A DNA stretch of 64,000 nucleotides. Origin: a virus (Duplodnaviria > Caudoviricetes). Positions 7,189 through 35,616 of the stretch are shown in pieces. Position numbers and translations under genes: made by a program. The stretch is taken from IMG/VR virus record IMGVR_UViG_3300030433_002104, positions 32,001-96,000 of that record. The stretch is one strand, 5' to 3'. Positions within the stretch are counted from its first letter, which is position 1; each line of letters opens with the position of its first letter. The notes below the pieces were generated by a model. That model saw nothing but the letters and a program-made list of their open reading frames with translations. It ran no database searches and had not been told where the DNA came from.

Positions 7189-7686
7189 ATGATTCAAGTA
7201 GAAATCACAGAGGAAATGAAGAAAAGAGCATGGGCCAAATCCCGTGAAATGGGAGTTATAAAAAACTCTATCATGAAGGGTGATGGCAACATAGCTGGCT
7301 TTATAGGAGAAGAGGTAGCCAACGTAGTTATTGAAGGCAATATAAGCAATACTTATGACTACGACATTGTAGATAAAAACGACATCAAGTACGATGTTAA
7401 AACAAAAAGATGCACCTCAGAACCAAAGCCGTACTATGATTGCTCAGTTGCTAATTTTAATACAAAGCAACAATGTGACAGATATGTTTTTGTAAGAGTA
7501 GAAAACAAAAATAGAAGATGGGGAAGGGCTTGGGTTCTTGGTTGGCTCGGGCACGACGAATATTTTGAAAAGTCCCGACATTTAAAGAAGGGGCAGATAG
7601 ACCCCTCAAATAATTTTGTTGTACGAGCAGATTGTCACAATGTTGCAATTTCAGAACTCAACAAATTTAGGAGATCAAAATGTTAG
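7189..7686 (+). CDS. putative PD-(D/E)XK restriction-endonuclease-like protein
   Basis: GFIGEE...YDYDIV...YDVKTK; ATG 7189 follows AAGGA (ORF track start 7162). Confidence 0.6.
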   Translation: MIQVEITEEMKKRAWAKSREMGVIKNSIMKGDGNIAGFIGEEVANVVIEGNISNTYDYDIVDKNDIKYDVKTKRCTSEPKPYYDCSVANFNTKQQCDRYVFVRVENKNRRWGRAWVLGWLGHDEYFEKSRHLKKGQIDPSNNFVVRADCHNVAISELNKFRRSKC

Positions 7687-8939
7687 ACTTCATATACGAT
7701 AGAAGAAATTTTTTGCGAGTAGGGAGTATTGGCGCTGGATTAAGTGCCGTTGGGTTATCTGATTACGCCTTAGCTCAAGATGCTCTGTCGTATGAAGATA
7801 AAGCCGTTGTTTGGGTGTGGCTTGGAGGAGGGCCAACTCAGTTTGAAACATTCCACGCCCCTAACGATACAGTTCCAACTGAATGGCAACCAATCAATGG
7901 AGCTATTCATGATCCAAAAACAAATATCACTCTTGGCGCTGACTGGACAGAGCTAGCTAAACACACAAGCAAGCTAAATGTTGTCAACTCTTTTAGCCAT
8001 AAAGATTCATCTCATAGACAAGGTACTCACTTCATGATGACTGGGCACTACAACCCAGAAAGAACAACAACATCTATAGCTAAGTATCCATCTTTTGGTT
8101 CTATTGTTTCCGCTGTTTATGGCACGAATCACCCCCAGAATGGAGTGCCAACATATGTCAAACAAGGTAAAATAGAAGGTGATGAAGGCGCTTGGCTTGG
8201 TGGAGCATACAAGCCTTTCGATCCATCAAATAAAGACAACCTTACACCAAGAATTGAAATCGACAGATTTAGCAATAGAAAACAACTCTTGGGAGCTATA
8301 GGCTCAGCGGCCAAAGATATATCTGGAGCAGGCGCTGAATCAGTTGGGTTTTACAAAGGTCAGGCTTATGATGTTATTCTTGGCTCAGCCAAAGATGCGT
8401 TCGCAACAGACAAAGAAACGGAACAAACTAAAGCTTTGTATGGGTCAGAAAAAGCGAATGATATTGGCGAACAAATGTTGCTAGCTCGTCGTCTTGTGGA
8501 GCATGGCACAAGATTTGTCACTCTTCATTATGGCGGATGGGACATGCATAGCAATATTTCAGACGCACTTAAGAAAAGGGTGTCTCCAATCGACAAGGCT
8601 ATCGCAGGATTCCTAGAAGACCTAGATCAACGAGGGCTAAGTAATAAAGTATTGCTCGTGGTAACTGGAGAGTTTGGGAGAACAAAGATTAACGCCAACG
8701 CTGGCAGAGACCACTGGCCTGCAATTACGCCAATGATGATGGCTGGTGGAGATTATCAAACTGGCAGAACTATCGGTGCATCTGACAGATCTTATAGCCC
8801 AGTTGAAAATCCTGTAGGCCCACTTGACTTACAGGCAACACTGTTTGACCACTTTGGGATAGAAAAGGGAATTCAACGCGTGGACAACGGCGGTCGCCCA
8901 AGATATTTATTAGAAGGAGAAGCTAAGGTAATATTATAA
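7680..8939 (+). CDS. DUF1501 family protein with Tat signal
   Basis: RRNFLRVG twin-arginine signal, WLGGGPTQFETF, LLARRLVEHG, GGWDMH, GEFGRT, GRDHWP. Confidence 0.88.
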   Translation: MLDFIYDRRNFLRVGSIGAGLSAVGLSDYALAQDALSYEDKAVVWVWLGGGPTQFETFHAPNDTVPTEWQPINGAIHDPKTNITLGADWTELAKHTSKLNVVNSFSHKDSSHRQGTHFMMTGHYNPERTTTSIAKYPSFGSIVSAVYGTNHPQNGVPTYVKQGKIEGDEGAWLGGAYKPFDPSNKDNLTPRIEIDRFSNRKQLLGAIGSAAKDISGAGAESVGFYKGQAYDVILGSAKDAFATDKETEQTKALYGSEKANDIGEQMLLARRLVEHGTRFVTLHYGGWDMHSNISDALKKRVSPIDKAIAGFLEDLDQRGLSNKVLLVVTGEFGRTKINANAGRDHWPAITPMMMAGGDYQTGRTIGASDRSYSPVENPVGPLDLQATLFDHFGIEKGIQRVDNGGRPRYLLEGEAKVIL

Positions 8940-9721
8940 TGGATGAACACACCAAAGTCTGCATAGTGGGAAAATCTAGTAGTCTTTCGGGTAAAAAACT
9001 AGGAAGTGTAATAGACTCTCATGACTTAATAACTAGGATAAATTTCAAGAACAGTCATGACCACGATGAGTCGTTATATACGCAAGACATTGGTGAAAGG
9101 ACACACCATATAGTTGCACACCCAAAAGTAGTTAGACATTATGTTAACAACGCTGTAGATGATCTAATCAAAAACTTGAAATCTATTGAAGATTCTGAAT
9201 ATGGAAAGAAGATTTTCATTATCACATACAGCAAGGAATTTTGGGATGTTGATGGGGACTATCCGCCTAAACCTTATCGGCTTCCAAAAGATCCACCAAA
9301 TATATTTACAAAAAAGGAAAAAGACCGATGCATTAGAGATTTTTGGGGTATGTGCTGGGACTTAGGAGTAGTTATTGAAAAATGTTACTACTCAGAAATG
9401 ACAAGAAACATACATGACATGATGGCTTACTTTTATGATAAACCTCTTGGCCATCCTCATGGATTATTCACCGGGACTGCAACAGTACTAGACTACACAA
9501 AAAAATACAAGAATATTAGTATAGCAGGACTGGGGAATGAATCAACATATTCACACGATAAAATAAATTTCAGAAAAGACAAAAACAGATATTACGGAAA
9601 GACTAGACCTCTAGCGGCAAACATAAGGCTGGAGTACGATCAGTTTTTTATCAGGCAGGCTATCAAGTCTGGAAGAATCAATAGGTTAGATGATGAAAAT
9701 TGTAATACCATTCAAGTTTGA
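8939..9721 (+). CDS. GT29 sialyltransferase-like protein
   Basis: Sialylmotif L-like CIVGKSSSLSGKKLGSVIDSHDLITRIN...YTQDIGERT, S-like FTGTATV...ISIAGLG, motif III-like RYY. Confidence 0.72.
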   Translation: MDEHTKVCIVGKSSSLSGKKLGSVIDSHDLITRINFKNSHDHDESLYTQDIGERTHHIVAHPKVVRHYVNNAVDDLIKNLKSIEDSEYGKKIFIITYSKEFWDVDGDYPPKPYRLPKDPPNIFTKKEKDRCIRDFWGMCWDLGVVIEKCYYSEMTRNIHDMMAYFYDKPLGHPHGLFTGTATVLDYTKKYKNISIAGLGNESTYSHDKINFRKDKNRYYGKTRPLAANIRLEYDQFFIRQAIKSGRINRLDDENCNTIQV

Positions 9722-10352
9722 CTCTACTAGACTACCAAATAAAAACATCATAGAGTTTGCAGACGGAAAGTCTTTGTTAGACATTAGCGTTGAGAACTTT
9801 AAAAAACATAACCATGAAGTATTTTTAGCGTGTGAGGATAGAGGAGAGACATATGATCTCCTTAAAAAGTATGATGCACAGCATATACCACTCAGCGACA
9901 CATCGAATCAGTGGCTAAACGTTTTAATTGAGCTCTCAGAAAGTTTGAATAAAAAGTTTTCGCCAAAAGAAGCAGTTTGTTTCTGGCAATGCATAATGCC
10001 ATTGTTTTGGCTGTATAATGATATAGAAGTTTTTTTTGACTTTGCAAAGGAAAATATAGGTAAATACGAGTCGGTAATCCCCGTCTATGAGTTTAAAGAC
10101 TATCTTGTAGATGAAAACTTGCAAGGCTTAAATTTTGGCCCCGGAAGCTGGCATGTGCCTTCTCAAAACTTACCAAAGATTTATTATATAACACCAATGT
10201 GCGTGACGACACCAAGCGTGTTACACAAATATAGATATACATACTCACCAAACTCTGTATTGTGGACGGCAAAAGGGCCGTATATTGATATAGACACGCA
10301 GGAAGAATTTAATATAGCCAAACTAATATGGAACGATCATCAACAAAGGTAA
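9690..10352 (+). CDS. CMP-nonulosonate/CMP-Kdo synthetase-like cytidylyltransferase
   Basis: IVIPFKFDSTRLPNKNI...GKSLL N-terminal signature, SQNLP, DIDTQEEF. Confidence 0.8.
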   Translation: MMKIVIPFKFDSTRLPNKNIIEFADGKSLLDISVENFKKHNHEVFLACEDRGETYDLLKKYDAQHIPLSDTSNQWLNVLIELSESLNKKFSPKEAVCFWQCIMPLFWLYNDIEVFFDFAKENIGKYESVIPVYEFKDYLVDENLQGLNFGPGSWHVPSQNLPKIYYITPMCVTTPSVLHKYRYTYSPNSVLWTAKGPYIDIDTQEEFNIAKLIWNDHQQR

Positions 10353-10393
10353 ATTATAGTTATAAAAGACTTAATAGTTCAGGAGAATCATTA

Positions 10394-11425
10394 ATGACTA
10401 AGAATTATATTAGTGAAATAGACAAAGTTTATTATGAAAATACATATGGAACTTCAGAAGAAATTACTGAAGATAACTTCCATATCCCCTCAGAAGAAGA
10501 CTATGTTTCTGCTGAAGAGGTGTACCACGAAGAGTCTGAAGTAGAAGAGTGGGATATTTCAGAAGCAAAGCCCGGCCTTTGGGAAAACATTCGCAAGAAG
10601 AAAGAAAGGGAAGGCAAAAACTATAAGCCAGCCAAGACAGAGAAAGAAGGCAGGCCGAGCCAAGAAGAACTTAAGAAAGCTCAATCTGACAAGCCCGGCC
10701 CAAAAGATCCTCGTAGAACTCCTGCGCCTAAAAAGGATCAAAAGAAAGGCTCAAAAAAGAATAAGCCTGACAGTGCCAAAAACCCCAGCGGAAAGATCAC
10801 GTTTAGCAAAGAGGTTACTGCTCAACTTTCTAAAAAGGTAAAGGAACACAACGCTAAAGGCAAAGGCTCAAAAGCTACGCTTGGTATGCTTAAAGCTGTG
10901 TACCGTAGAGGTGCTGGAGCTTACTCTACTAGTCACGCTCCAAAGATGAGTCGTCATGGGTGGGCTATTGCTAGAGTAAATGCGTTCTTGACACTACTAA
11001 GAACTGGTAAACCTTCTAACTCTGCTTATACCCAAGACAATGATCTCTTGCCAAAGGGTCATCCTAAAAAATCAAAAGCCGCCTATCAGTATGAAAACCC
11101 AAAAACTGGCGAGTTATTTAACTACTCCAGAAAAGGAATATACAAGAAAGATGGCGTAAACCTTGTTTACAAAGGTAAGGCCGCAGAATATCAAGGCAGA
11201 AAAGTTAAACTTGGCAAGCCATTCAGAACTCCTGATGGGCCAAAAAAGTTTTCTGTATATGTAAAGAACGATAAAGGAAATGTTGTTAAAGTTAACTTTG
11301 GAGATCCTAATATGGAAATCAAGAAGGATAATCCAAAACGTCGTAAAAGTTTTAGAGCAAGACACAAGTGTGATACTCCCGGCCCTCGCTGGAAGGCACG
11401 ATACTGGTCTTGCAGAAAATGGTAA
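10394..11425 (+). CDS. modular Lys/Arg-rich phage protein (acidic N-terminus plus several basic viral modules)
   Basis: AGGAG before ATG 10394; modules PGLWENIRKKK, AVYRRGAGAY...WAIARVNAFL, AEYQGRKV...FGDPNM...RRKSFRARHKC...ARYWSC resemble small basic domains of marine phages and large DNA viruses. Confidence 0.7.
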   Translation: MTKNYISEIDKVYYENTYGTSEEITEDNFHIPSEEDYVSAEEVYHEESEVEEWDISEAKPGLWENIRKKKEREGKNYKPAKTEKEGRPSQEELKKAQSDKPGPKDPRRTPAPKKDQKKGSKKNKPDSAKNPSGKITFSKEVTAQLSKKVKEHNAKGKGSKATLGMLKAVYRRGAGAYSTSHAPKMSRHGWAIARVNAFLTLLRTGKPSNSAYTQDNDLLPKGHPKKSKAAYQYENPKTGELFNYSRKGIYKKDGVNLVYKGKAAEYQGRKVKLGKPFRTPDGPKKFSVYVKNDKGNVVKVNFGDPNMEIKKDNPKRRKSFRARHKCDTPGPRWKARYWSCRKW

Positions 11426-11436
11426 GAGGTGCTACA

Positions 11437-11598
11437 ATGAAAACGTTACTTAGTTTTATTTTTGTTTTTGGTGTTATGATGACGCTTGGTTGTATGGACG
11501 GACAGCCCTTACCTTGCGAAATATGTGAAGGGGATTGCCCCTGCTCAGATGGAACTTGCATCTGTGATATTAATTGTACATGTCCAAATTGCGCCTAA
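11437..11598 (+). CDS. small Cys-rich lipoprotein (metallothionein-like tail)
   Basis: GAGG before ATG; MKT plus hydrophobic core plus TLGC lipobox; nine further Cys in CxxC/CxC motifs. Confidence 0.65.
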   Translation: MKTLLSFIFVFGVMMTLGCMDGQPLPCEICEGDCPCSDGTCICDINCTCPNCA

Positions 11599-11648
11599 TA
11601 CGTTGACCCTAATCAGGCAACAGCGCGCAGTATTATAGGAGTAATTTT

Positions 11649-12860
11649 ATGGACAGGCGAAGTTTTTTAGCTGGATTTTCTTCTCTTCCACTGGTAGACT
11701 TGTTAAGTGCTAATGCAGAAGAAATGCGGAAGAATAATAAATCCGCTATACTATTATGGATGGGTGGTGGCCCTTCGACTATGGATCTTTGGGACTTAAA
11801 GCCGGAAGCGCCTACAGGCGGGCCATTTAGACAAATATCCACAACTGGAGACGTGCAGATATGCGAACACTTGCCTTTAATGGCAAAGCAAATGCACAAT
11901 ATGGCAATCATCCGATCCATGAGTACCCGTGAAGCTGACCACATGCGTGGGCGGTATTACATGCACACTGGCTATGTTCCCAACCCCAGTATTGAGCACC
12001 CTAGCTATGGTGCTGTATTATCGCATCAGCTACACAGAAATAATCTAGATATTCCGCAATTCGTCTCAGTCGGAGGAGGAAGTATTGGCGGAGGGTTTTT
12101 AGGTATGAACTATTCACCATTCGTTGTTAACAGCGATGGCAGAGTTCGCAACCTAGACATAAAACCTGACGCAAGATTCCTGCAAAGAGCTTATGCATTA
12201 GATGTCATCGAAAATGGTTTTATTAACCAGAAGAGAGGCTCTATGGCTAAAGATCACAGAGATGTTTTGAGACAGGCATTTAGCTTGCTAACCAGCGAAC
12301 AAATGGAAGCGTTCAAGGTTGCAGGTGAGCCTGATGCGGTTAAAGATAGATATGGAGACAACAACTTCGGCAAGTCATGCCTAATGGCTAGAAGGCTTGT
12401 CGAGGTTGGAGTCCCTTTTATAGAAGTAAACTTGGGAGGCTGGGACAATCACCAGAACATATTCCCAACATTAAGAGACAATAAATTGCCCATGCTGGAT
12501 CAAGGCATGAGCGCACTAATCGAGGATTTAGAACAAAGAGGGCTTCTGGAGGATACAGCTATAATCTGGATGGGCGAATTTAGTCGCACGCCTCGTATCA
12601 ACCAAAATGCTGGCCGTGACCATTGGGCACGAAGCTGGAGTGTTGTCGTTGGAGGAGCTGGTATGAACGGTGGCATTGCCATCGGTGAAACTAACTCAGA
12701 CGGCACACGGGTTGAGACAGAACCATACAGCTCACAAGATGTTATGGCTTCTGTATGTAAAGCTCTTGGTATATCCTTGACAACTACATTCACGAGTAAG
12801 AACGGCAGACCTATGAAGATAGCTAATTCAGGAAAAGTAATTACTGATCTATTTTCTTAA
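11649..12860 (+). CDS. DUF1501 family protein with Tat signal (second paralog)
   Basis: AGGAG SD; DRRSFLAG, WMGGGPSTMDLWDLKP, CLMARRLVEVGV, GGWDNH, GEFSRTP, GRDHW. Confidence 0.9.
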   Translation: MDRRSFLAGFSSLPLVDLLSANAEEMRKNNKSAILLWMGGGPSTMDLWDLKPEAPTGGPFRQISTTGDVQICEHLPLMAKQMHNMAIIRSMSTREADHMRGRYYMHTGYVPNPSIEHPSYGAVLSHQLHRNNLDIPQFVSVGGGSIGGGFLGMNYSPFVVNSDGRVRNLDIKPDARFLQRAYALDVIENGFINQKRGSMAKDHRDVLRQAFSLLTSEQMEAFKVAGEPDAVKDRYGDNNFGKSCLMARRLVEVGVPFIEVNLGGWDNHQNIFPTLRDNKLPMLDQGMSALIEDLEQRGLLEDTAIIWMGEFSRTPRINQNAGRDHWARSWSVVVGGAGMNGGIAIGETNSDGTRVETEPYSSQDVMASVCKALGISLTTTFTSKNGRPMKIANSGKVITDLFS

Positions 12861-12869
12861 GGTGTAAAA

Positions 12870-13184
12870 ATGAATTTCTTCAAGAACGCTGTTTATGTAC
12901 TCGTATTTATTAATTTAGTAAGTTTAGGTTTTAATGGCTGGATGTACAAGGAGCTACATGAGCCTGATATTATTATGGCCTCAGACCCTGCGCTCCGCAC
13001 TCTAATCGAAGAATGTAGAGCTAGAGATACCCACATATTAAAGGCCATACTTCTAACTCATCATCGCCTTGGTATTCATCCGCCAATGCAACAAGATATG
13101 TGCCCAGCATGTGAGGAAATGAAGGGTAATGTTGCAGAGGACAATACCAAAACTATTAAAACTATAAAATATCTTGAAAACTAG
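12870..13184 (+). CDS. membrane-anchored hypothetical protein with His/Cys cluster
   Basis: N-terminal hydrophobic helix; THHRLGIH...CPAC. Confidence 0.6.
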   Translation: MNFFKNAVYVLVFINLVSLGFNGWMYKELHEPDIIMASDPALRTLIEECRARDTHILKAILLTHHRLGIHPPMQQDMCPACEEMKGNVAEDNTKTIKTIKYLEN

Positions 13185-13189
13185 TGTTT

Positions 13190-13240
13190 TATACGCTTGA
13201 TTTGACTATAATATAATAACGGGATAATTACCCGTACTAA
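13190..13240 (+). promoter_or_regulatory. putative promoter plus palindromic operator upstream of the dnaE block
   Basis: AT-rich intergenic gap with TTGA...CTATAATATAAT, followed by the inverted repeat ACGGG-ATAATTA-CCCGT (13219-13235). Confidence 0.5.
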
Positions 13241-13268
13241 TATTGAAACTTGTATTGAAGGATTAATT

Positions 13269-14900
13269 ATGGACTGGGCTCCACTGTGCAACTATACGCA
13301 CTACAGTTTACTAAAAGGATACTCAAAGCCAGCACAGCTGGCGGCTAAGTGTAAAGAAAACGGTTACAAGTTCTGCGGCATTGCTGATTATAAGTCAGTT
13401 TCGGGGGCCGTGAACTTTGTTAAGTCTTGTAAAAAGCATGGCGTTAAACCTATCATTGGTTGTAGCTTTGACGGATTCACGCTTTTTGCTAAGAATATAG
13501 AGGGCTGGTTCGACCTCATCAAGCTAATCTCTAGCCTAGATGAGGAAGGCCAGTTATCTCAAAAATATCTTATCTCCATCTGCTCTAAAGGCAACTTAAT
13601 TTCTGTTGCAAAAGATGAGAAACTATCCCCAATTTCTGGCGACGACTTCTATAAAAAGACGGAATGGCTCAGAGACATCTATTACTGCGAAAAAAGTGAC
13701 GCAGAACTCCACAGAATTTTACTATGTTCTAGTATGAAAAAGACGCTGCCAAAAGTTTACTCAGCGCTAAAAAAACATGAAGAAATTGACAACAAAGAGT
13801 TCTTCATATCAAACGAATTTCATATGCCTAACAGAACAGAAATCTGCGAGCTAGTAGGTGAAGAGGGTGAACAGGCGGTAACTGAAATTTGTGAAAAATG
13901 TGAAGACTTCGACATCCTAAGAAAGCCATCTCTTCCTACATTTAAGACACCAACAGGAGAGTCTGAAGAAGAGTATCTAAAACAGCTATGTAGAGAAGGT
14001 TGGAGAGACCTATTAATAAATGCTGACAAAGTAAAGGACGAAGATAAAAAGCAACAATACCTAGAACGATTTAAGTCTGAATTTGACGTTATCAACGATG
14101 CTAATCTTTTCGGGTATTTCCTGATCGTCCGTGACATCATTAATTATGTAGAAAGCAAGGGATGGCTATCTGGGCCGGGGCGAGGTTCTGCGGCGGGCTG
14201 CTTAATCTCATACCTCATTGGTATCACTAAGATTGATCCTATTGAGTTTGATCTACTCTTTGAGAGATTTTATAATAGCGGAAGAAATACAGAAGACCAC
14301 GTTTCGTTGCCAGATATTGATATTGACGTGCCGGGCAAGAAACGCGATGAAATAATAACATACCTCAAAGACACATATGGTCATAACAGTGTTAGTCAGA
14401 TGCTTACATTCGGCAGACTTCAGGGTAGAAGTGCTATTAAAGAAGTGCTGAGAATGAATGAGGCTTGCTCATTTGGCGAGATGAACGAAATATCAAAAGT
14501 CATCCCAAACGAAGCAGATGTATCTGATCAGTTACAGGCTATGGATGAAGAAGATAGGTCTATTATAAAGTATGCACTTATTAATAATCATGAAGAACTC
14601 AGAGACTATTGTTTTGTAAATGACAATGGCGAACTTGAGGGTGATTATGCAAAATATTTTGAACAGGCGATAGAGATAGAGGGAACATTCAAGACTCAGG
14701 GAAAACACGCAGCGGGCGTTGTAATTTCTTCAGACAACCTGAATGAGTCATGCCCAATGGTTCCTCAAAGAAATAGTGATGAGAAAATTGTAGGTATTGA
14801 AATGACAGACTTAGAAGCATTAGGATATGTGAAGTTTGATGTTCTTGGTATCAACCTTTTAGACAAGATTATGAAAATAGAGGAATTTTTAGATGCATAG
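13269..14900 (+). CDS. dnaE: DNA polymerase III alpha, N-terminal part (degenerate PHP + palm/thumb)
   Basis: HYSLL, GPGRGSAAG, LLFERF, catalytic PDIDID, GKHAAGVV and KFDVLG; ends shortly after the third catalytic Asp. Confidence 0.92.
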   Translation: MDWAPLCNYTHYSLLKGYSKPAQLAAKCKENGYKFCGIADYKSVSGAVNFVKSCKKHGVKPIIGCSFDGFTLFAKNIEGWFDLIKLISSLDEEGQLSQKYLISICSKGNLISVAKDEKLSPISGDDFYKKTEWLRDIYYCEKSDAELHRILLCSSMKKTLPKVYSALKKHEEIDNKEFFISNEFHMPNRTEICELVGEEGEQAVTEICEKCEDFDILRKPSLPTFKTPTGESEEEYLKQLCREGWRDLLINADKVKDEDKKQQYLERFKSEFDVINDANLFGYFLIVRDIINYVESKGWLSGPGRGSAAGCLISYLIGITKIDPIEFDLLFERFYNSGRNTEDHVSLPDIDIDVPGKKRDEIITYLKDTYGHNSVSQMLTFGRLQGRSAIKEVLRMNEACSFGEMNEISKVIPNEADVSDQLQAMDEEDRSIIKYALINNHEELRDYCFVNDNGELEGDYAKYFEQAIEIEGTFKTQGKHAAGVVISSDNLNESCPMVPQRNSDEKIVGIEMTDLEALGYVKFDVLGINLLDKIMKIEEFLDA

Positions 14901-15567
14901 AGATTATATTGTATTCGACTTTGAAACTGGTTCTAGAAACCCAAGAAAAACACAGCCAACACAGATTGCGGCTTTGGCTCTAGATGGTAGAAACTTCAAA
15001 CTAAAGGGAACCTTTAATAGTGAAATCCGTCCAATCTTGGATGATGAAAAGGCTATCGAGATGGGCTTTGACCCACTAGAGGATGAGGCACTTCGCATCA
15101 CAGGTAAGAACAGGGATGATCTGGCTAAAGCACCTATGCCAAAGACGGTATGGAAGAAGTTCTGTAACTTTGTTAATCAATACAATTGGAAGGGCACACA
15201 GTTTTTTGCTCCTATCCCAGCAGGCTTTAATATTATTGGCTTTGATATGATTATCATCGACCGTCTATGTAAGGCATACGGCCCATACGACAAAGAGCGA
15301 GAGCAGCAAAAGCTCTTTAATAAAATATATAAAGTAGACATGATGGATAATATGTTTATGTGGACTGAAGGAGATCCAGCTGTGAAGTCTATTAGTATGG
15401 ATTCACTTAGGGATAGAATGGGGCTGAGCAAAGAAAATGCCCACGATGCCCTGCAGGACGTAAAGGATACAGCGAACATAATGATTAAATTTATGAAAAC
15501 ACATAGATCTGTATACAGAAACTTAACTATTGATAAAGCATTTGCGGACGGCGAACTATATGTCTAG
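14893..15567 (+). CDS. dnaQ: DEDDh 3'-5' exonuclease (DnaQ/epsilon-like)
   Basis: ExoI VFDFETG, ExoII GFNIIGFD, ExoIII HDALQD. Confidence 0.88.
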   Translation: MHRDYIVFDFETGSRNPRKTQPTQIAALALDGRNFKLKGTFNSEIRPILDDEKAIEMGFDPLEDEALRITGKNRDDLAKAPMPKTVWKKFCNFVNQYNWKGTQFFAPIPAGFNIIGFDMIIIDRLCKAYGPYDKEREQQKLFNKIYKVDMMDNMFMWTEGDPAVKSISMDSLRDRMGLSKENAHDALQDVKDTANIMIKFMKTHRSVYRNLTIDKAFADGELYV

Positions 15568-17131
15568 AGAGATTGATTATAACTGCGATAAAACTTGGGA
15601 TCTTTTCCACGAAGGCAAGACCAAAGGCGTGTTCCAGTTAGAAAGTAACTTGGGTAAATCTTGGTCTAAGAAATTAAAACCAAGTAATATGGAAGAGCTA
15701 TCAGCTCTAATTGCACTAATTAGGCCGGGATGTCTAAAAGCCATCTCTGATGGCAAGTCAATGACCCAGAGATACATTGATAGAAAACATGGCTTAGAAG
15801 ATGTAGAATATCTACATGAATCTTTGGAAGAAATACTAAAACCAACGTATGGGGTTCTAGTTTACCAAGAGCAATCTATGAGAATTGCACAAAAACTAGC
15901 AGGGTTTAATCTCCAAGAAGCCGACGTTTTAAGAAAAGCGATTGGTAAGAAGAAGGCAGACCTGATGGCCGAGGTGAAGAAAGACTTTATCAAAGGTTGC
16001 AAGAAAGAAAAGATTGTATCAGAAGAAATAGCAGAAGAGATATTCGGATGGATTGAAAAGTCATCTAGGTATTCTTTTAATAAGTCTCATGCAGTTGCTT
16101 ACGGTATGTGTTCTTACTGGAGTGCATACCATAAAGTACATAATACTGAAGAGTTCTTTCTAGCCTATTTATACCACTCAAACGAAAAGCAGGACGCTCA
16201 CGAAGAAGTATATGAGCTTGTAACAGACGCAAAGCTTTTCGATATAGAAGTAAAGACTCCTAACATCACCAACTTCTCAGAAAAGTTCAGCATGGAAAAG
16301 GGCAAGATATACTTTGGTGTTAAGGATATAAAGTCTTTGACCGGCAAGACTGGAGATAAGGTTGTGGCTGGAATAGCTGAACTAAAAGATGAGCTAGGTA
16401 AATCCACCAAGAGTTTTAGTTGGTTAGAAGTATTACTATTTCTAAGTACAAAAATAAACTCTACAGCTTTTAAGGCTTTGGCGTCAGTTGGTTTCTTCAG
16501 GGGTTTCAAAGATAGAATCTCTAGGAATAGGGCGCTGTATGAATATGAAATCTTTCGTGGATTAACAAAGGCTGAGCAGACATGGGTCAGAGAAAATTAC
16601 AAGTCAAAGAGATGGCCCGACCTAGCTAGCTGCTTGCAAGACCTTGCCCCCACAAAGAAAGAAGGTGGCGGAACTAGCAAAGTAGAGAGGAGTCAATATG
16701 TACAAAACGAGATCCACTTTCTGCAAAACCCTCCTTATGACTTGTCGGACGACCCATCTTGGGTGGTAGATCAGGAAGTTAAATTCTTAGGCTGTCCAGT
16801 GTCAATGGCAAAGATAGAGGCATCAGATACATCTGCCGCAAATACTAGTTGTAAAGAAATAGTAGACGGCAAAAAGGGTAAAAACCTACTAGTCGCTGGC
16901 AATATTAAAAGAGTAGCTGACTACAGGATTAGCAAGGGCAAATCCAAGGGGAAATACATGAGCTTCTTGACAATAGAAGATGAAAGCTGTTTACTAGACA
17001 GTGTAATAGTTTTCCCAGAATGTAGAGATAAATATCAATACCTACTGTACGAAGGTAACAACCTACTGTTTGGCGGATCGGTCTCTAAACAGGACGATAG
17101 TTTTGTAGTAAATAATATTTTTGAAATTTAA
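15560..17131 (+). CDS. dnaE: DNA polymerase III alpha, C-terminal part (fingers, HhH, OB fold)
   Basis: GVFQLES, ALIRPG, TYGVLVYQEQ, ADVLRKAIGKK, YSFNKSHAVAY, OB fold KSKGKYMSFLTIED; ATG 15560 overlaps the exonuclease stop (ORF track start 15530). Confidence 0.92.
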   Translation: MSREIDYNCDKTWDLFHEGKTKGVFQLESNLGKSWSKKLKPSNMEELSALIALIRPGCLKAISDGKSMTQRYIDRKHGLEDVEYLHESLEEILKPTYGVLVYQEQSMRIAQKLAGFNLQEADVLRKAIGKKKADLMAEVKKDFIKGCKKEKIVSEEIAEEIFGWIEKSSRYSFNKSHAVAYGMCSYWSAYHKVHNTEEFFLAYLYHSNEKQDAHEEVYELVTDAKLFDIEVKTPNITNFSEKFSMEKGKIYFGVKDIKSLTGKTGDKVVAGIAELKDELGKSTKSFSWLEVLLFLSTKINSTAFKALASVGFFRGFKDRISRNRALYEYEIFRGLTKAEQTWVRENYKSKRWPDLASCLQDLAPTKKEGGGTSKVERSQYVQNEIHFLQNPPYDLSDDPSWVVDQEVKFLGCPVSMAKIEASDTSAANTSCKEIVDGKKGKNLLVAGNIKRVADYRISKGKSKGKYMSFLTIEDESCLLDSVIVFPECRDKYQYLLYEGNNLLFGGSVSKQDDSFVVNNIFEI

Positions 17132-17139
17132 TGTGCTTT

Positions 17140-17185
17140 AGGTATTAGTTCTTGCTAATATAATAAGGTACGGGGATATAAACGG
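17140..17185 (+). promoter_or_regulatory. putative promoter upstream of ssb and the glycan cluster
   Basis: Intergenic gap containing CTAATATAATAA...CGGGGATA, similar to the 13205-13227 sequence. Confidence 0.4.
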
Positions 17186-17196
17186 AAAGTAATAAT

Positions 17197-17514
17197 ATGA
17201 ATTTTTGTTCTTTTACTGGGTTCTTAGTTGATGACCCAAAGTTGGAAGATGATAATAACGTGAGTCTACTAAGGTTCACCATCGTGTGCTATACGTATAG
17301 AAAGACGAAAAGCACTGGAGAAAAAAGCAGGATTCCAACATTCATGAGCTGCGAGGCTTGGCATACTGGCGCTGAGACAATAGCTAAGTTCGCAAAAAAA
17401 GGTACTAAGATACACATCCATGCCTCGGCTAGGAATCCAGCCAAAGGTAAATCTGGGATAGTATTCAGAGTTAATGAGTTTGACATTATAAACCAAGAGG
17501 CATCAGATGCGTAA
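17197..17514 (+). CDS. ssb: single-stranded DNA-binding protein (OB fold, no long tail)
   Basis: MN...TGFLVDDPKL, CEAW...AETIAKFAKKG SSB signature. Confidence 0.78.
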   Translation: MNFCSFTGFLVDDPKLEDDNNVSLLRFTIVCYTYRKTKSTGEKSRIPTFMSCEAWHTGAETIAKFAKKGTKIHIHASARNPAKGKSGIVFRVNEFDIINQEASDA

Positions 17515-19168
17515 GAAACGAATTTTATTCTGTAGTGAAGCTACTTTTCTAAACACGGGTTATGCTACATATACAAGAGAGATCTTGAACTATCTTCATT
17601 CTACAGGCAAATATGAAATTGCTGAGATGGGATGTTATGGAATGATAGGAGACCCTAAAGCTGCGGACATACCTTGGAAGTTTTATGGTGTAGTACCACC
17701 AGAGAATTTTCCCGAAGAGAAGAAAAAAGAGTACCACTCTAAACCTACAAACCAGTTTGGAGAATGGATATTTGAGGAAGTGTGTTTAGACTTCATGCCA
17801 GATATTGTCTGTGATATTCGTGACTTCTGGATGCTAGACTTTGCAGAACGATCTCCCTATAGAGATTATTTTAAGTGGTGCATAATGCCAACTGTTGATG
17901 CTAGACCACAAGCAAGACAGTGGATAGCCACTTATGAGGGAGCTGATGCCTGTCTATCATATTCTGATTGGGCTGGTGGTATTTTGGAGGATCAATCCGG
18001 TGGGAAGATAAACTATATAGGATGTGCTCCTCCATCTGCTCACCCTGCGTATCAACCTGTAGAAGATAAGGACATGCACAAAGTAAATGTTGGAATTGAC
18101 CCTGCCTTCAAGGTTATTGGGACTGTCATGAGGAATCAGCGTAGAAAGCTTTTCCCAGACTTGTTTGAAGCGTTTAGAAAGTTCTTAGACGCATCGGAAG
18201 ATAAAAATTATTACCTATACTGTCACACTAGTTACCCAGACTTAGGCTGGGATATACCAGAGCTGATCCATCAAAATGAGTTGGCATCTAAAGTTATGCT
18301 GACATACATATGTAAAGAAACTGGCAGGCCGTTTCCTTCTTTATTTAAAGGGGCAGTAATTCAATCCCCATTTACTGGAAGACGCAGTGCTGTTGTGTGC
18401 AGTGTTAAAGATGGGGCGACTTATGAAGATTTAGCTTCAATTATCAACACGTTTGATGTCTATATTCAGTATGCAAACTCAGAAGGTTTTGGACTTCCTC
18501 AAGTAGAAGCAGCTGCCTGTGGAGTGCCTGTCATGTCAACAGACTACTCAGCGATGGAAAGCGAAGTGCGTAAACTTGGAGGCGTACCGCTAAAGCCAAG
18601 AGCTTTATACAAAGAACTTGAAACTGGCTGTTACAGGGCAGTGCCCGACAACGACAACACCGCTAAAGAACTATTGAAGTTCTTCTCGCTTAGTCAGGAA
18701 GAAAGAGACGAGCTTGGTAAGACTGCTCGTAAAAACTTTGAAGAAAAGTACCAATGGCATTTGAGCGGTGCGATGTGGGAAAACTACTTCGACAGTGTAG
18801 AAATTCTTCCAATAGAGCAGACTTGGTTATCTCCACCCAAGATTAGACAGCCAGAGCCAAAGCCTCAAGAACTACCTCAAAATGTAACGCATCAAGGTCT
18901 AGCAAAATGGCTTATATCTAGCGTATTATGCGAGCCAGAAAAGCTTGACAGTTTTACGGAGGCAAGGCTGTGTAGAGATTTATCCTATCAAAGCTCAACG
19001 GGAACCACTGGAGGAATGTACTACAACGAAAGCTCGGCAGCTTTTGACGGCGCAGCTACTAGGAACCCATTCAACTTTGATATTGCATATAACCACTTGA
19101 AGGCTTTGTGTGAGAGAAGAAATCACTGGGAACAAGTTAGATGGCAAAGGATGCAGAATATTAGATGA
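17507..19168 (+). CDS. GT4 (GT-B) glycosyltransferase, large
   Basis: TGYATY, MRNQRRK, SEGFGLPQVEAAACGVPV (EX7E). Confidence 0.88.
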   Translation: MRKKRILFCSEATFLNTGYATYTREILNYLHSTGKYEIAEMGCYGMIGDPKAADIPWKFYGVVPPENFPEEKKKEYHSKPTNQFGEWIFEEVCLDFMPDIVCDIRDFWMLDFAERSPYRDYFKWCIMPTVDARPQARQWIATYEGADACLSYSDWAGGILEDQSGGKINYIGCAPPSAHPAYQPVEDKDMHKVNVGIDPAFKVIGTVMRNQRRKLFPDLFEAFRKFLDASEDKNYYLYCHTSYPDLGWDIPELIHQNELASKVMLTYICKETGRPFPSLFKGAVIQSPFTGRRSAVVCSVKDGATYEDLASIINTFDVYIQYANSEGFGLPQVEAAACGVPVMSTDYSAMESEVRKLGGVPLKPRALYKELETGCYRAVPDNDNTAKELLKFFSLSQEERDELGKTARKNFEEKYQWHLSGAMWENYFDSVEILPIEQTWLSPPKIRQPEPKPQELPQNVTHQGLAKWLISSVLCEPEKLDSFTEARLCRDLSYQSSTGTTGGMYYNESSAAFDGAATRNPFNFDIAYNHLKALCERRNHWEQVRWQRMQNIR

Positions 19169-19977
19169 TAAGTTTTATTGTACAAGGGCCAGTGTCAGAA
19201 TCTACACAAAACACAGTAGACTCTATACTGGAACATTATCCAGACTCGGAAATAATCTTAGCGTCTACCAATGGAGTAACAGATGTAGACAATGTAGACA
19301 AGATACACTTGGATGGTCATGATGAAGAAGTAATACTAAATAAACAAATACTCAGCAGTAGAGCTGTAAACAAAGCTAAGTTTGATGTAGCCTGCAAGGT
19401 AAGAAACGATATTGTTTTTACAAATAACAACTTAATGAATTTCGTCAATGGTGAGTTACTTTCGCAGGAGCCTCATCAGAGACTGGAAACCCATCGCTTG
19501 TTTGACAGGCTTGTTCTTTCCAGTAATTACTTTTTCTGCAACCCAGAAACATCAGGGTTTTACTATCATCCATCGGACTGGATTTTCTTAGGACTTACAT
19601 CAGACCTGAAAAAACTCTTCAACATTCCGCTGCAAGACCCAAAGGAAAACGTTTACTACTTGGAAGAAGAGGTGGTATTACCTTTTGGGGACGTGATCAC
19701 TGGCGAAAGAATGAAATATAGACCAGAGCAATATATATTTGTAACTGCTCTAAATGAGGCTGGCTTCGATGTATCTCTTGACTACGAATACCAAAAACCA
19801 GAAGATCAATTGTCGGCTTATAGATTTATAGCAAACAATTTTTATATATCAGACGCAGGAGAGGACTCTGGATTTCACTGTTCCAAGTATCCGCGCAACG
19901 TGGGAGAACACCCACATCTACTAAACAATCATCAATGTAACCTATTAAGAGAAGCTATGCTAGAGGAAGTTAAATGA
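19165..19977 (+). CDS. WavE-like LPS synthesis protein
   Basis: ISFIVQGP, EIILAST, KVRND, YHPSDWIFLG, PEQYI match the WavE family pattern. Confidence 0.7.
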   Translation: MISFIVQGPVSESTQNTVDSILEHYPDSEIILASTNGVTDVDNVDKIHLDGHDEEVILNKQILSSRAVNKAKFDVACKVRNDIVFTNNNLMNFVNGELLSQEPHQRLETHRLFDRLVLSSNYFFCNPETSGFYYHPSDWIFLGLTSDLKKLFNIPLQDPKENVYYLEEEVVLPFGDVITGERMKYRPEQYIFVTALNEAGFDVSLDYEYQKPEDQLSAYRFIANNFYISDAGEDSGFHCSKYPRNVGEHPHLLNNHQCNLLREAMLEEVK

Positions 19978-31505: not shown

Positions 31506-32878
31506 TTAAACTTGTAGTATTTGATCTAGATGGTGTTTTAGTAGATGCAAGGGACTTGCACTATGACGCTATGAATTTAGCACTTGCTGATATAGCGCCC
31601 GAATGTGTTATCAGCAGAGAAGAGCACCTATCTACCTACGACGGGCTACCAACCAAGAAAAAGCTGGGACTATTAACAGAACACAAAGGTTTGTCGCAGG
31701 ACTTGTATAACGACATCTGGAAAGCGAAGCAAGCTAAAACAGTGCAGCTTATCAACAGTATGACCACTGACCATAGAATGGCACACACGTTGTCAGAACT
31801 GAAAAAGTCAGGATACAAAGTTTATGTCGGCTCTAACTCAGTTAAGCACACTATTAAAATGATGTTGCTACGTAGAGGGTTGATTGAATTTGTTGATGAA
31901 ATATTTTCCAACCAAGACGTTAATCATCCAAAGCCGCATCCAGAGATATATTTAAGGTGCATGGTTCATGCTGGAGTATCTCCAAACGAAACAATTATTA
32001 TTGAAGACTCACATGTTGGCAGAAAAGCCGCTATGGACTCTGGTGGCAATCTGTTTGCAGTAAAGAATCCAGACGATGTTATATTGGAAGATATAGTAGA
32101 AGAGATCAAAAAAATTGACAAAACACAAAAAGAAGTAAAGCCAAAATGGCAGGGTGGAAAAATGAATGTATTAATACCGATGGCTGGAGCTGGATCACGC
32201 TTTCAAAAGGCTGGATACACTTTCCCAAAACCGCTAATCGAAGTCAATGGCAAGCCCATGATTCAGGTGGTAGTAGAAAATATAAACGTAGACGCAAAGC
32301 ATATATTTGTAGTGCAGAAATCACACTATGAAAAGTACAACCTAAAAACCGTTTTAAATAACATTACTCCTGACTGTGAGATTGTTCAGGTAGACGGTGT
32401 TACTGAGGGAGCCGCTTGCACCACGTTGTTAGCAAAAGAGTTTATTAACAATGACCAGCCTCTACTAATGGCAAACTCAGACCAGTTTGTAGAATGGGAT
32501 TCAAATGAGTTCATGTACTCAATGGTGGGAGATAACATAGATGGTGGCATGTTAACCTTTAGGTCAAACCATCCAAAGTGGAGTTACGCAAAGTTGAACG
32601 ATGACGGCTTTGTGACAGAAGTCCAAGAAAAGAATCCAATCAGTGACATTGCAACCGTTGGAATCTATTACTGGGCTAAGGGGTCTGACTATGTTAGGTA
32701 TGCAGAGCAGATGATAGACAACGACATTCGTGTTAATAATGAATTTTATGTATGTCCGGTTTTTAATGAAGCCATCGCTGATAATAAAAAATTAAAGATA
32801 TTTGACATCGAAAAAATGTGGGGCTTGGGAACTCCAGAGGACTTAAACTATTTTTTGGAGAACAAGAACGATGCATAA
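31502..32878 (+). CDS. HAD phosphatase fused to a sugar nucleotidyltransferase
   Basis: FDLDGVLVD, KPHPEIY, IEDS; then IPMAGAGSRF...PKPLI, ANSDQ, VNNEFYVCP, GLGTPEDL. Confidence 0.88.
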   Translation: MIKLVVFDLDGVLVDARDLHYDAMNLALADIAPECVISREEHLSTYDGLPTKKKLGLLTEHKGLSQDLYNDIWKAKQAKTVQLINSMTTDHRMAHTLSELKKSGYKVYVGSNSVKHTIKMMLLRRGLIEFVDEIFSNQDVNHPKPHPEIYLRCMVHAGVSPNETIIIEDSHVGRKAAMDSGGNLFAVKNPDDVILEDIVEEIKKIDKTQKEVKPKWQGGKMNVLIPMAGAGSRFQKAGYTFPKPLIEVNGKPMIQVVVENINVDAKHIFVVQKSHYEKYNLKTVLNNITPDCEIVQVDGVTEGAACTTLLAKEFINNDQPLLMANSDQFVEWDSNEFMYSMVGDNIDGGMLTFRSNHPKWSYAKLNDDGFVTEVQEKNPISDIATVGIYYWAKGSDYVRYAEQMIDNDIRVNNEFYVCPVFNEAIADNKKLKIFDIEKMWGLGTPEDLNYFLENKNDA

Positions 32879-33638
32879 GTTTAAGTTATACATAGTAACA
32901 TACAATCATGAAGAGGCTCTGGACAGATGTTTAAAGTCCATTAGTAATAGTGATATACATTTATATAGTAACGAAATTAATATTATAAACAATTATGGAA
33001 GATTGAAAATTCCAAACACTTATGGCCTAGAGGTCAACATATTAGATAATGTTCTTAGGCCAGACCACTCCACCGGACATCTTGGCAGGAACTGGAACCA
33101 AGCAATCATAAATGGTTTTGGAGATTTGAGAAATCCACAATGTGAGTTTGTAGTATGCCTTCAGGTAGACACAGAAGTGCTGCCGGAATGTTTCTCTAGG
33201 TTAGAAAGGTATCATTCAGAAGGCTACGAATATATACAAGAAGGAAGGGGAGACCAGTTTATGAGTTGGTCGCCAAAAGGAGTGGTTGAGATTGGGCTTT
33301 TTGACGAAAGAATATGTGGAATAGGATTTCAAGAAGGAGAATATTTTAGTAGGGCTAAGAAGTTTCTTAGTGCTGGTACGTCGTTAAATGATAGAGGGCA
33401 CAACATGTTTCACAATGCTATACCCGAAAAACTGGTCGCAGACTATGGTGACAGCATATGTGTTGGCTTGTTTCACCCTTTATATCAGGCTTTACAGCAG
33501 AACTCAATAAACGGCGGAAGTAGGTATTTTATGTACCCATTTTTTGAAAAGGACTTAAGTGAAAATCTAATGAGAGACTTGGGGTATGTGGGCTGGCAAG
33601 AGCTGACCAAACATAGAGACAAAACTTTTTTAAAATAG
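32871..33638 (+). CDS. putative GT-A glycosyltransferase
   Basis: IVTYNH, RNWNQAI, CLQVD, IGLFDER...GFQE. Confidence 0.65.
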   Translation: MHKFKLYIVTYNHEEALDRCLKSISNSDIHLYSNEINIINNYGRLKIPNTYGLEVNILDNVLRPDHSTGHLGRNWNQAIINGFGDLRNPQCEFVVCLQVDTEVLPECFSRLERYHSEGYEYIQEGRGDQFMSWSPKGVVEIGLFDERICGIGFQEGEYFSRAKKFLSAGTSLNDRGHNMFHNAIPEKLVADYGDSICVGLFHPLYQALQQNSINGGSRYFMYPFFEKDLSENLMRDLGYVGWQELTKHRDKTFLK

Positions 33639-33663
33639 CATACACATAAATGGAGAGTCATAA

Positions 33664-33981
33664 ATGACTAAAAACCTAAAGGACATGATTGGCGGATGGT
33701 TTATCGGAGACTTTGAACCAACCGCATGGAGGACGGCGGGACTTGAAGTGGCCGTTAAAGAGTACAAGGCTGGAGACAAAGAGCCAAAACATTTACATAA
33801 AATAGCAATAGAGTTTACGGTAATAGTAAGAGGCAAAGTTGTAATGAACGGCGTTGAGTACGGGGAAGGAGACATTATTCGTATTGACGCAGGAAAAGCT
33901 ACAGACTTTGAAGCCTTAGAAGATACAATCACAGTAGTAGTCAAAAAACCATCCGTAAAAGGAGATAAATATCTAGTATGA
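33664..33981 (+). CDS. cupin-fold protein
   Basis: GGWFIGDFEP, HLHKIAIEFTVIVRG, PSVKGDKY. Confidence 0.78.
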   Translation: MTKNLKDMIGGWFIGDFEPTAWRTAGLEVAVKEYKAGDKEPKHLHKIAIEFTVIVRGKVVMNGVEYGEGDIIRIDAGKATDFEALEDTITVVVKKPSVKGDKYLV

Positions 33982-34409
33982 AAATTATATCACATAGAGG
34001 AAATTTAGACGGGCCACAGGAACAGGACAATGTTATAAGTGAGCTCGAAAGAGTCTCTAAAGACATGCTTGTCGAAGTTGACGTGTGGCACATGGAGCAT
34101 GGTTGGTATCTTGGTCACGACGGGCCAGAAAGAGCCATCTCATTTGATTTTATTACAAACCCAAACTTTATTTTACACGCCAAGAATTTAGACGCTTTGT
34201 ATAAACTGACAGGCACAAACCTACATTATTTTTGGCATCAAGAAGACGATTTTACACTAACATCTAAACAAATTATATGGACTTATCCTAAAAAAGAAGT
34301 CACCAATCGCTCTATCATTGTCTGCCAGACATTGGAAGAAGTAGAGGAATATAAGACTAAAGACATTTGGGGTATTTGCACAGACTATGTAAAGGACGCA
34401 CAGCGATGA
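33978..34409 (+). CDS. glycerophosphodiester phosphodiesterase-like protein (short)
   Basis: IISHRGN, VEVDVW, LGHD, HAKN, GICTDY. Confidence 0.75.
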   Translation: MKIISHRGNLDGPQEQDNVISELERVSKDMLVEVDVWHMEHGWYLGHDGPERAISFDFITNPNFILHAKNLDALYKLTGTNLHYFWHQEDDFTLTSKQIIWTYPKKEVTNRSIIVCQTLEEVEEYKTKDIWGICTDYVKDAQR

Positions 34410-34852
34410 ATATAGGCATTTATTTTAATAATACATCAGAATCAGAACCGTTATACAAAGCGCTACAGAGCGTAAATGAGGGCCTCTCAGAGGGTACTCT
34501 TAGGGACGCAAGTATATTTTATGACGACTCTGGCCCAAATAGCATACCGTCAAAATGTGGTTTCTTTGACGCTGTAGAACTATGGCATTTTACAGGGGAT
34601 TTAATAACCACTTCTTTAAGTACTACCAACAAGGTTCGCAATATTGTGAATAAGTTTGATACTGTATTTTACTACGGATGGTATGACGAAAGAGATCCAC
34701 TAGAATTAATCAAAGTAGCTAACGACAAAAACGTTAAAGTTGTGTGCAATAGCCAGACTAGTAAAAACCAATTTACTAGACTTACTGGTCAAGAGCCAGA
34801 CGCTGTAGTACAAGACTTTGACCTAGAAAAAATCATAGAGGTGAAAAAATGA
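34406..34852 (+). CDS. hypothetical protein (possible GT-B half domain)
   Basis: ATGA overlap with both neighbours; alpha/beta character only. Confidence 0.5.
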   Translation: MNIGIYFNNTSESEPLYKALQSVNEGLSEGTLRDASIFYDDSGPNSIPSKCGFFDAVELWHFTGDLITTSLSTTNKVRNIVNKFDTVFYYGWYDERDPLELIKVANDKNVKVVCNSQTSKNQFTRLTGQEPDAVVQDFDLEKIIEVKK

Positions 34853-35616
34853 ACGAGACAAAAATTGTCGAACTGTATGAGTCTGGAGAATATAGTACTT
34901 ATCAAATAGCTGAGAAGTACAAGACCTATCCAAATAAAATTAGACGTATACTTGTCAAGCACGGCGTACAGATGAAGTCTAAAAGTCAGGCGCAGAAGTC
35001 TGCCCTTGCCAACGGGAGGGCCAAACACCCAACTAAAGGAACTGTTAGAAGCAAGGAAGACCGCCTTAAGATTAGTGCTACAGTGAAAAAATACTGGAGC
35101 AACATGAGTAAAGAGGAGTACGAGCACAGATGTAAAGAAGCACAGACTCGCTGGTATAGTATGCCAGAAGAGCAACGTGCAGAAATTACCGCACTTGCTA
35201 TAGAAGCTGTTAGGAAAGCCGGCAAGGAAGGTTCAAAGATGGAAAAGTTCCTTCTAGAAGAGCTTACTAATCTAGGGTATAGAGTAGAATTTCACAAAAA
35301 AGATCTAATTCCCAATGAAAAATTAGAAATAGATTTGTATATTCCTGCTCTTAAGACTATAATAGAGATAGACGGGCCTTCTCACTTTCTGCCCATTTGG
35401 GGTGAAGAGAAACTCCAGAAGCAAATCAAGGCAGACGACCAGAAGACAGGTCTAGTATTGAGTAAAGGATTCGTGGTTCTTCGTATTAAAAATATGCTTG
35501 ACCACGTTACACTTGCAGCAAAGAATAAAATGATTACTAGTGTCGTTGCCAAGTTAAACGATATTAATAATAAATTCCCAAGGAAGTCAAAGAGGTTTAT
35601 TGAGATAGAATTATGA
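34849..35616 (+). CDS. HTH plus Vsr/DUF559-type endonuclease, homing-endonuclease-like
   Basis: STYQIAEKY HTH, basic NUMOD-like middle (SKEDRLKISA), SKMEK...EIDLYIP...IEIDGPSHF. Confidence 0.72.
   Translation: MNETKIVELYESGEYSTYQIAEKYKTYPNKIRRILVKHGVQMKSKSQAQKSALANGRAKHPTKGTVRSKEDRLKISATVKKYWSNMSKEEYEHRCKEAQTRWYSMPEEQRAEITALAIEAVRKAGKEGSKMEKFLLEELTNLGYRVEFHKKDLIPNEKLEIDLYIPALKTIIEIDGPSHFLPIWGEEKLQKQIKADDQKTGLVLSKGFVVLRIKNMLDHVTLAAKNKMITSVVAKLNDINNKFPRKSKRFIEIEL

Follow-up and report, generated by a model that had tools for sequence, protein, structure and literature searches.

A phage DNA polymerase III alpha subunit encoded by two genes, with a DnaQ-like exonuclease gene in the break and no inteins

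The polymerases of family C copy every bacterial chromosome. PolC is a single chain that has its exonuclease domain placed in frame inside the PHP domain, whereas contiguous DnaE (Escherichia coli 2HNH and 5FKU; Thermus aquaticus 2HPI) is accompanied by a separately encoded DEDDh exonuclease, epsilon (DnaQ). Here we describe a locus in a 64,000-nucleotide (nt) stretch of phage DNA, referred to as the window (bases 32001-96000 of IMG/VR record IMGVR_UViG_3300030433_002104, a 105-kb contig of an uncultured marine phage with an estimated completeness of ~63%), in which dnaE-N, an exonuclease gene, and dnaE-C form three overlapping plus-strand cistrons spanning positions 13269-17131. The window shares its domain order, Asp triad, and separately encoded DEDDh exonuclease with contiguous DnaE and epsilon, but its alpha subunit comes as two polypeptides, parted near E. 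coli residues 574/585, with the exonuclease gene inside the break. The window exonuclease is distantly similar to epsilon, and no PolA, PolB, second exonuclease, or beta clamp gene was found in the 105-kb contig. Like the PolC of Firmicutes, the locus has a C-family polymerase with a DEDDh exonuclease encoded within the polymerase gene span; the difference from PolC is that the exonuclease has a cistron of its own, placed at the palm/fingers border. PolC models matched the window proteins over small stretches (E 4e-8 to 1e-4).

Two-gene C-family catalytic subunits are already known from the split DnaE of cyanobacteria (Ssp/Npu split intein) and from "fractured" metagenomic dnaE (PMC2677866). 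There, Hint fragments flank the break and trans-splicing heals it, whereas the window break has no Hint fragments, and fractured genes have a homing endonuclease between their pieces where the window has a presumed proofreader gene. Models of the cyanobacterial halves (NF007079, NF005616) align across the window break rather than at it, NF005616 only from C residue 172. A minimal Pol III alpha-like module of group 2.2 jumbo phages is predicted to be divided, intein-free, into two standalone proteins (Iyer et al. 2021, PMC7824862); that module is a core without PHP and other domains, its genes lie far apart, and it exists alongside a family-B replicase, whereas the window has a full-length DnaE in adjacent pieces as the only polymerase detected. 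Intein-free splits are also known for PolB: gp43A/gp43B of Aeromonas phages 25 and 44RR, for which PMC2988022, citing Petrov et al. 2010, describes co-purifying, active fragments, and DNAP-N/DNAP-C of PhiKZ, which form a stable 1:1 complex (PMC13648687). These are intein-free splits between adjacent genes, as in the window, although they belong to family B and not C, keep the exonuclease domain inside one fragment, and have no partner gene in the break; the window system is known from its genes, and the likeness is one of analogy, not membership. Our literature search turned up no account of a split DnaE that is full-length, intein-free, and has a proofreader gene in the break, and the naturally split C-family polymerases that it returned were intein-healed or minimal accessory modules. 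The features of the locus are as follows.

13188-13268, plus strand: leader 5' of the three-gene unit, intergenic, with TTTATA-18-TATAAT sigma-70-like hexamers, a short hairpin at 13219-13235, and, 8 nt before the ATG, a GAAGGA Shine-Dalgarno
13269-14900, plus strand: dnaE-N, 543 residues; PHP, palm, and thumb of DNA polymerase III alpha (PF02811, 5.6e-14; PF07733, 2.7e-69)
14893-14900, plus strand: junction 1, ATGCATAG, where the exonuclease start overlaps the dnaE-N stop; GAGGA Shine-Dalgarno 9-13 nt upstream
14893-15567, plus strand: DnaQ-like DEDDh 3'-5' exonuclease, presumed proofreader, 224 residues (PF00929, 1.9e-10; phrog_192)
15560-15567, plus strand: junction 2, ATGTCTAG, where the dnaE-C start lies within the final Tyr-Val codons and stop of the exonuclease gene
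15560-17131, plus strand: dnaE-C, 523 residues from the ATG; fingers, HhH/beta-binding region, and OB fold (PF17657, 2.5e-49; PF14579, 7.3e-6)
17197-17514, plus strand: gene for single-stranded DNA-binding protein (SSB), context outside the split (PF00436, 2.5e-8; phrog_44)

The catalytic subunit, a single polypeptide in contiguous DnaE, is parted here into two open reading frames (ORFs) by a 672-nt gene in another frame. Alignment to 2HNH places the end of dnaE-N at about E. coli alpha residue 574, exactly 16 residues past KFDVLG. PDIDIDV of the N-half aligns with E. coli PDFDVDF (D401/D403) and KFDVLG with KFDFLG (D555), and D349, D351, D353, and D524 were invariant in 37 sequences. The PF02811 match to the PHP domain covers N residues 10-95. 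The C-half starts at about E. coli residue 585, with C residue 9 corresponding to E. coli 593 and GVFQLES beginning at C residue 23; it aligns to 5FKU 593-857 and weakly to 981-1059. Fingers and HhH region are both present on this half (PF17657, DNA_pol3_finger; PF14579, HHH_6), and the OB fold is weakly supported in the window protein (E. coli 981-1059, i-E 0.74), with PF01336 matching orthologues. These results bear out the initial annotation, which had read from the sequence an N-half with all three catalytic Asp ending ~16 residues after KFDVLG, a C-half starting just before GVFQLES at the palm/fingers boundary, a complete DEDDh exonuclease between them in a position unlike that in PolC, and no intein termini. 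Its reading of the locus as a non-covalent three-subunit replicase is supported in outline, and the conditions that it named as refuting this reading (frameshift errors, rejoining by RNA or protein splicing, relaxed selection on the halves) were each decided in favour of the reading by the results below.

The arrangement recurs widely. Two IMG/VR scans, together with contigs fetched for intact relatives, yielded 88 loci with both halves, 77 of which have the order dnaE-N, exonuclease, dnaE-C and 11 a contiguous dnaE; N-half identity to the window among split loci ranged from 82% down to 35%. The intact genes, at 50-54% identity for full-length DnaE, are single ORFs of 1052-1146 residues and fall into the P0001 group (loci L059-L061), the P0019 group (L062-L068), and P0043/P0044 (L107/L108). 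Against the P0001 group, the window shares 54% identity in the N-half, 47% in the C-half, and 64% in the exonuclease, and the P0019-group exonuclease is 44% identical to that of the window. A P0001-based scan of IMG/VR found no loci. Median pairwise dN/dS (nonsynonymous to synonymous rates) was 0.05 for N, 0.03 for the exonuclease, and 0.03 for C, as calculated from pairs with unsaturated synonymous sites, these sites being saturated across the clade as a whole. Relatives with an intact dnaE thus exist, yet the halves evolve at dN/dS 0.03-0.05 with no decay. We conclude that the fission of this phage replicase gene is real and ancient, occurs widely, and is maintained by selection.

By alignment with the E. 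coli enzyme, the break is at the palm-to-fingers transition. On PHROG 405, a profile of full-length phage DnaE, dnaE-N reaches position 612 and dnaE-C begins at 625. The N ORF of every split lineage ends just past the helix ..LLDKIMKI.. and the C ORF begins before ..DYxCxKTW.. In an AlphaFold2 (AF2) model of intact P0001 (predicted local distance difference test, pLDDT, 89.6), the break falls in a 10-residue coil (533-542) between helices 521-532 and 543-551. The junction alignment with P0001 has no residues missing and none added beyond a few; N and C together are 1066 residues, 14 more than the 1052 of P0001, the closest intact relative.

We consider it likely that the dnaE-N/exonuclease/dnaE-C unit encodes a replicative C-family polymerase in pieces, with N and C docking non-covalently and the exonuclease acting as the proofreader. 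The alpha subunit would be cut where a short coil links two helices between palm and fingers, leaving the PHP domain, the palm with its three catalytic Asp, and the thumb on the N protein, and the fingers, the DNA-binding HhH region, and the OB fold on the C protein. Nucleotidyl transfer needs palm and fingers alike and neither half would polymerise alone, so N and C must associate; docking would rebuild the active site and, since no docking peptides were added at the break, would use the native inter-domain interface, as the split PolB enzymes of Aeromonas phages 25/44RR and PhiKZ do. The exonuclease is predicted to be the cognate proofreader, co-inherited whatever its gene position, and may be needed all the more given the lost PHP metal ligands. 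The canonical HxH and TDHG ligands are replaced in the window's clade and ~19 residues are deleted, so the PHP domain is unlikely to proofread there, which leaves the DEDDh enzyme as the only proofreader candidate. The changes lie in N residues 5-70 (window 13269-13600), where PLHxH has become PLCNY, TDHG has become ADYK, and the deletion follows GCE. The ligand loss is common to the window's clade and the P0001 group; more divergent split clades keep intact PHP motifs and also keep the exonuclease.

Translation of the three products together, in similar amounts, would probably be coupled through the tight start/stop overlaps. Within the unit, each gene is in the +1 frame relative to the preceding one, with an 8-nt overlap. 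The dnaE-N and exonuclease genes have good Shine-Dalgarno sequences, whereas none is clear upstream of dnaE-C at junction 2; with its ATG embedded in the last codons of the exonuclease gene, dnaE-C fits termination-reinitiation coupling. This ATG-in-Tyr-Val arrangement is kept in the closest relatives.

If the two halves work in this manner, aquatic phages of a large, abundant group apparently run a full-length DnaE in two pieces with no covalent link. The break would mark a structurally permissive cut between palm and fingers, the part that moves during nucleotide selection, and would be a natural split site for engineering, while the locus would offer a compact phage replicase for structural work.

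Several points weigh against this interpretation. The binding of N to C, and of the exonuclease to either half, is something we infer from the genes, and neither half has gained a docking peptide at the break, in contrast to the split NrdA of phage Aeh1 (PMC3045599). Since the contig is ~63% complete, another polymerase could lie in the missing part. The matching 8-nt overlaps, in which the initial annotation had seen a sign of coupling, are present at both junctions but are not special to the locus. Start/stop overlaps of 1-8 nt are the norm across the window genome (other 8-nt cases at 17507/17514 and 32871/32878), and the overlaps are therefore not specific evidence of coupling, which we infer; in relatives the junctions vary, with overlaps of 4, 8, or 11 nt, none, or 160-220-nt spacers. 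The exonuclease matches ExoI, RNase T, and the DinG exonuclease domain as well as it does the PolC exonuclease domain, and its match to E. coli epsilon (TIGR01406) reaches only E 6e-4. Its place as a third subunit is the weakest part of the interpretation because the protein is a generic DnaQ-fold enzyme, tied to the polymerase through synteny and co-phylogeny.

The DEDDh residues of the exonuclease (D9, E11, D118, H184, and D189) were invariant in 37 relatives, and an AF2 model (pLDDT 90.5) has a DnaQ-type fold with a low-confidence, disordered C-terminal tail. Foldseek gave probability 1.0 to DnaQ-fold nucleases, with the DinG exonuclease domain, ExoI, the PolC exonuclease domain, and RNase T as the best matches. 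A complex prediction for the N-half with the exonuclease (37-row alignment each) scored 0.00, which is no verdict and is counted neither for nor against binding. The tail is conserved (..KAFADGxLYV); across residues 205-224 (window 15500-15567) it carries a motif, ..(D/E/K)x(A/S)F.., with F217 nearly invariant, which is a candidate polymerase- or clamp-binding peptide.

The alternative that survives best keeps the two-piece alpha subunit and makes the exonuclease a free 3'-5' nuclease, serving transient proofreading, recombination, repair, or host-DNA turnover, whose gene merely travels with dnaE. The generic fold and sequence, with DinG, ExoI, and RNase T as the best solved matches, would agree with this, as would gene order in sister phages, which shows that the gene need not sit between the halves: the P0001 and P0019 groups have an orthologous exonuclease gene immediately upstream of dnaE, and the third intact group (P0042, P0043, and P0044) has it ~2 kb downstream, between two glycosyltransferase genes. 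However, the exonuclease gene is single-copy at each locus and always lies 0-3 kb from dnaE, and its tree mirrors the DnaE tree across all three positions, the downstream copies standing beside the L075/L079/L091/L093 split group and the upstream copies beside the window's group. Such congruence means that the exonuclease has been inherited together with the polymerase whatever the order of their genes, as expected of a cognate partner. The invariant catalytic residues, the dN/dS of 0.03, the degenerate PHP nuclease site that leaves the window's clade no other proofreader, and the annotation of PHROG 192 members as "DNA polymerase exonuclease subunit" likewise argue against a free nuclease, which we regard as unlikely.

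A second alternative would have the halves rejoined by an unrecognised route, be it a divergent intein-like or sortase-like ligation, a trans-splicing RNA, or programmed frameshifting or bypassing. The +1 frames with 8-nt overlaps superficially resemble a frameshift site, and phage replication genes often contain inteins and bypass-like elements (PMC2677866). Against this, no Hint or intein family was found on the three window proteins (Pfam, down to E 0.01), Rfam returned no family over 12800-17600 at a permissive threshold (E <= 1), and the combined length of N and C leaves no room for intein fragments. Frame relations of the three genes differ between relatives (e.g. 1,1,2; 1,3,1; 1,2,3), and whole extra genes or kilobases sit in some junctions, the longest spacers being 1.8 kb (L085) and 3 kb (L106). 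Split inteins were readily seen where present. In L056 (748-7826), dnaE is in four pieces plus the exonuclease, with two further breaks at N306/307 and ~C173, where the flanking ORFs carry ~95 extra C-terminal and ~35 extra N-terminal residues with Hint/Intein_splicing similarity; its exonuclease junctions are without intein. This locus served as a positive control, and since its inteins are detectable in the same gene, their absence at the exonuclease break is a meaningful negative. We thus hold any such rejoining to be very improbable.

The layout of L056 is that of the "fractured genes" of Dassa et al. 2009 (PMC2677866), within the window's own phage family. Free-standing nuclease-like ORFs lie between its pieces, one of 277 residues with weak Phage_endo_I/PD-(D/E)xK matches and one of 297 residues with no assignment. 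A ~1.1-kb in-frame insert at N306/307, before invariant Ser307, was also observed in an otherwise intact P0019-group dnaE (L069:2626-3743) and is most likely a contiguous intein at the same site as the L056 split intein. Inteins are thus frequent in this gene and can be detected there, yet the exonuclease break has none.

An assembly or sequencing artefact, or a decaying pseudogene of one contig, is the default caution for a metagenomic contig, found no evidence in its favour, and has a negligible probability here: identical 543-, 224-, and 523-residue products occur on several independent contigs (NCBI, JGI, ENA, Logan, and Tara data), a length of 543 residues holds for nearly every listed member of the N-half's 90%-identity cluster, on dozens of contigs, and the 77 loci with varying frames and junctions and low dN/dS, a mark of strong purifying selection, rule out assembly error, a recent pseudogene, and a fixed frameshift.

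The split and intact forms share a genomic setting and a common ancestry. Synteny between the window and its intact sisters runs from DnaB, primase, dNMP kinase, and a PD-(D/E)xK nuclease through dnaE to GT4 genes; SSB is the conserved 3' neighbour of dnaE in split and intact relatives, as in the window, the P0019 group (L062), L107, and L108, and was not called in L059-L061. A maximum-likelihood tree of N+C (79 rows, LG+G4, rooted on bacterial DnaE) united all phage sequences (SH-aLRT support 100), with split rows basal and both intact groups nested within. Forcing the split rows into one clade, a constraint chosen after the tree was seen, was 143 log-likelihood units worse (approximately unbiased, AU, test p 5e-28; 38-row subset). 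The split forms are not one clade, and the arrangement has therefore changed at least twice, by either one fission and one or two re-fusions, with the exonuclease placed differently, or several fissions at the same loop. An N-only tree put the P0001-type intact genes beside the window's split clade (SH-aLRT 99); that these are N/C mosaics was not established, as the AU test did not reject a tree that keeps all eight intact rows together (p 0.147) and the C-part rejected the alternative (p 2e-4). With sister lineages that have intact, split, and intein-fractured dnaE, this phage group offers a system for studying the evolution of gene fission, fusion, and order in an essential enzyme.

The polyphyletic split state and the three positions of the proofreader gene could also point to fission as a reversible, possibly transferable state of the replicase, either because the gene was split and rejoined repeatedly at one permissive loop or because an "N-tail, exonuclease, C-head" cassette spread between alleles by recombination. 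We offer this only tentatively and regard it as rather doubtful. If true, a proofreader within the break would be selected, e.g. for fixed-ratio co-translation or gated replicase assembly, and the break loop would be a natural, portable split site for C-family polymerases.

Cultured and cellular sequences held no counterpart. There was no near-identical DNA among GenBank phages, and the N-exo-C arrangement was not found in cultured GenBank phages, whose best DnaE relatives are ~30% identical and contiguous, with exonuclease matches of 24-28%. A search of 185,579 prokaryote species genomes returned no close relatives and no case of the arrangement, only a cellular dnaE at 29%, and gave no prophage or host clue. 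PHROGs v4 contains DnaE fragments broken at other positions, none at the window's break. Cultured Cellulophaga phages (Cbastvirus; phi13:1, L058, record 31606-35206) have dnaE annotated as two abutting genes of 525 and 673 residues, 1 nt apart; this break is at about residue 420-430 of the window N-half, with no gene between, and may be a frameshift or another fission.

A promoter/terminator scan gave matches no commoner than in shuffled sequence, and the consensus match of the leader hexamers was likewise not above the level of shuffled sequence. An (A/C)TAATATAATAA motif flanks the unit in intergenic DNA, as ATAATATAATAA at 13208 (13208-13219) and CTAATATAATAA at 17155 (17155-17166), and each copy is followed by a short GC hairpin or G-rich run. 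It is a possible phage promoter bracketing the unit; two such copies are not above chance, at least two matches having occurred in 27 of 100 shuffles. Upstream, a ~5.5-kb block (7680-13184) with two DUF1501 paralogues and other genes lies between a conserved 165-residue gene and dnaE-N, where L059 has the exonuclease. A 104-residue ORF (12870-13184) was considered as a homing endonuclease 5' of dnaE-N; its Endonuclease_7 match is sub-threshold (E 0.0099) and it is unlike the Endo VII-like ORF inserted in L021, and the idea was dropped. A 270-residue gene (19165-19977) in the slot used by the "downstream" clade is WavE-like and not an exonuclease relic.

In divergent split subclades, the 160-220-nt gap between dnaE-N and the exonuclease gene is filled by two families of small ORFs (58-87 residues, with conserved Cys pairs; e.g. 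L071:6896-7111, L073:6902-7123, L079:6859-7035, and L075:6868-7053). These have no homologue in the window or its clade (L002-L057) and are therefore not needed for the split enzyme. Both junctions are insertion hot spots in relatives (L021:8265-8654, L036:7623-8297, L054:7667-8317, L056:4283-4981, and L019:8297-8779), where the inserted genes encode an Endonuclease VII-type HNH protein, an FkbM methyltransferase, a helix-turn-helix protein, a glycosyltransferase-like protein, and several proteins with no assignment. Most of these inserted genes themselves overlap the start or stop of their neighbours.

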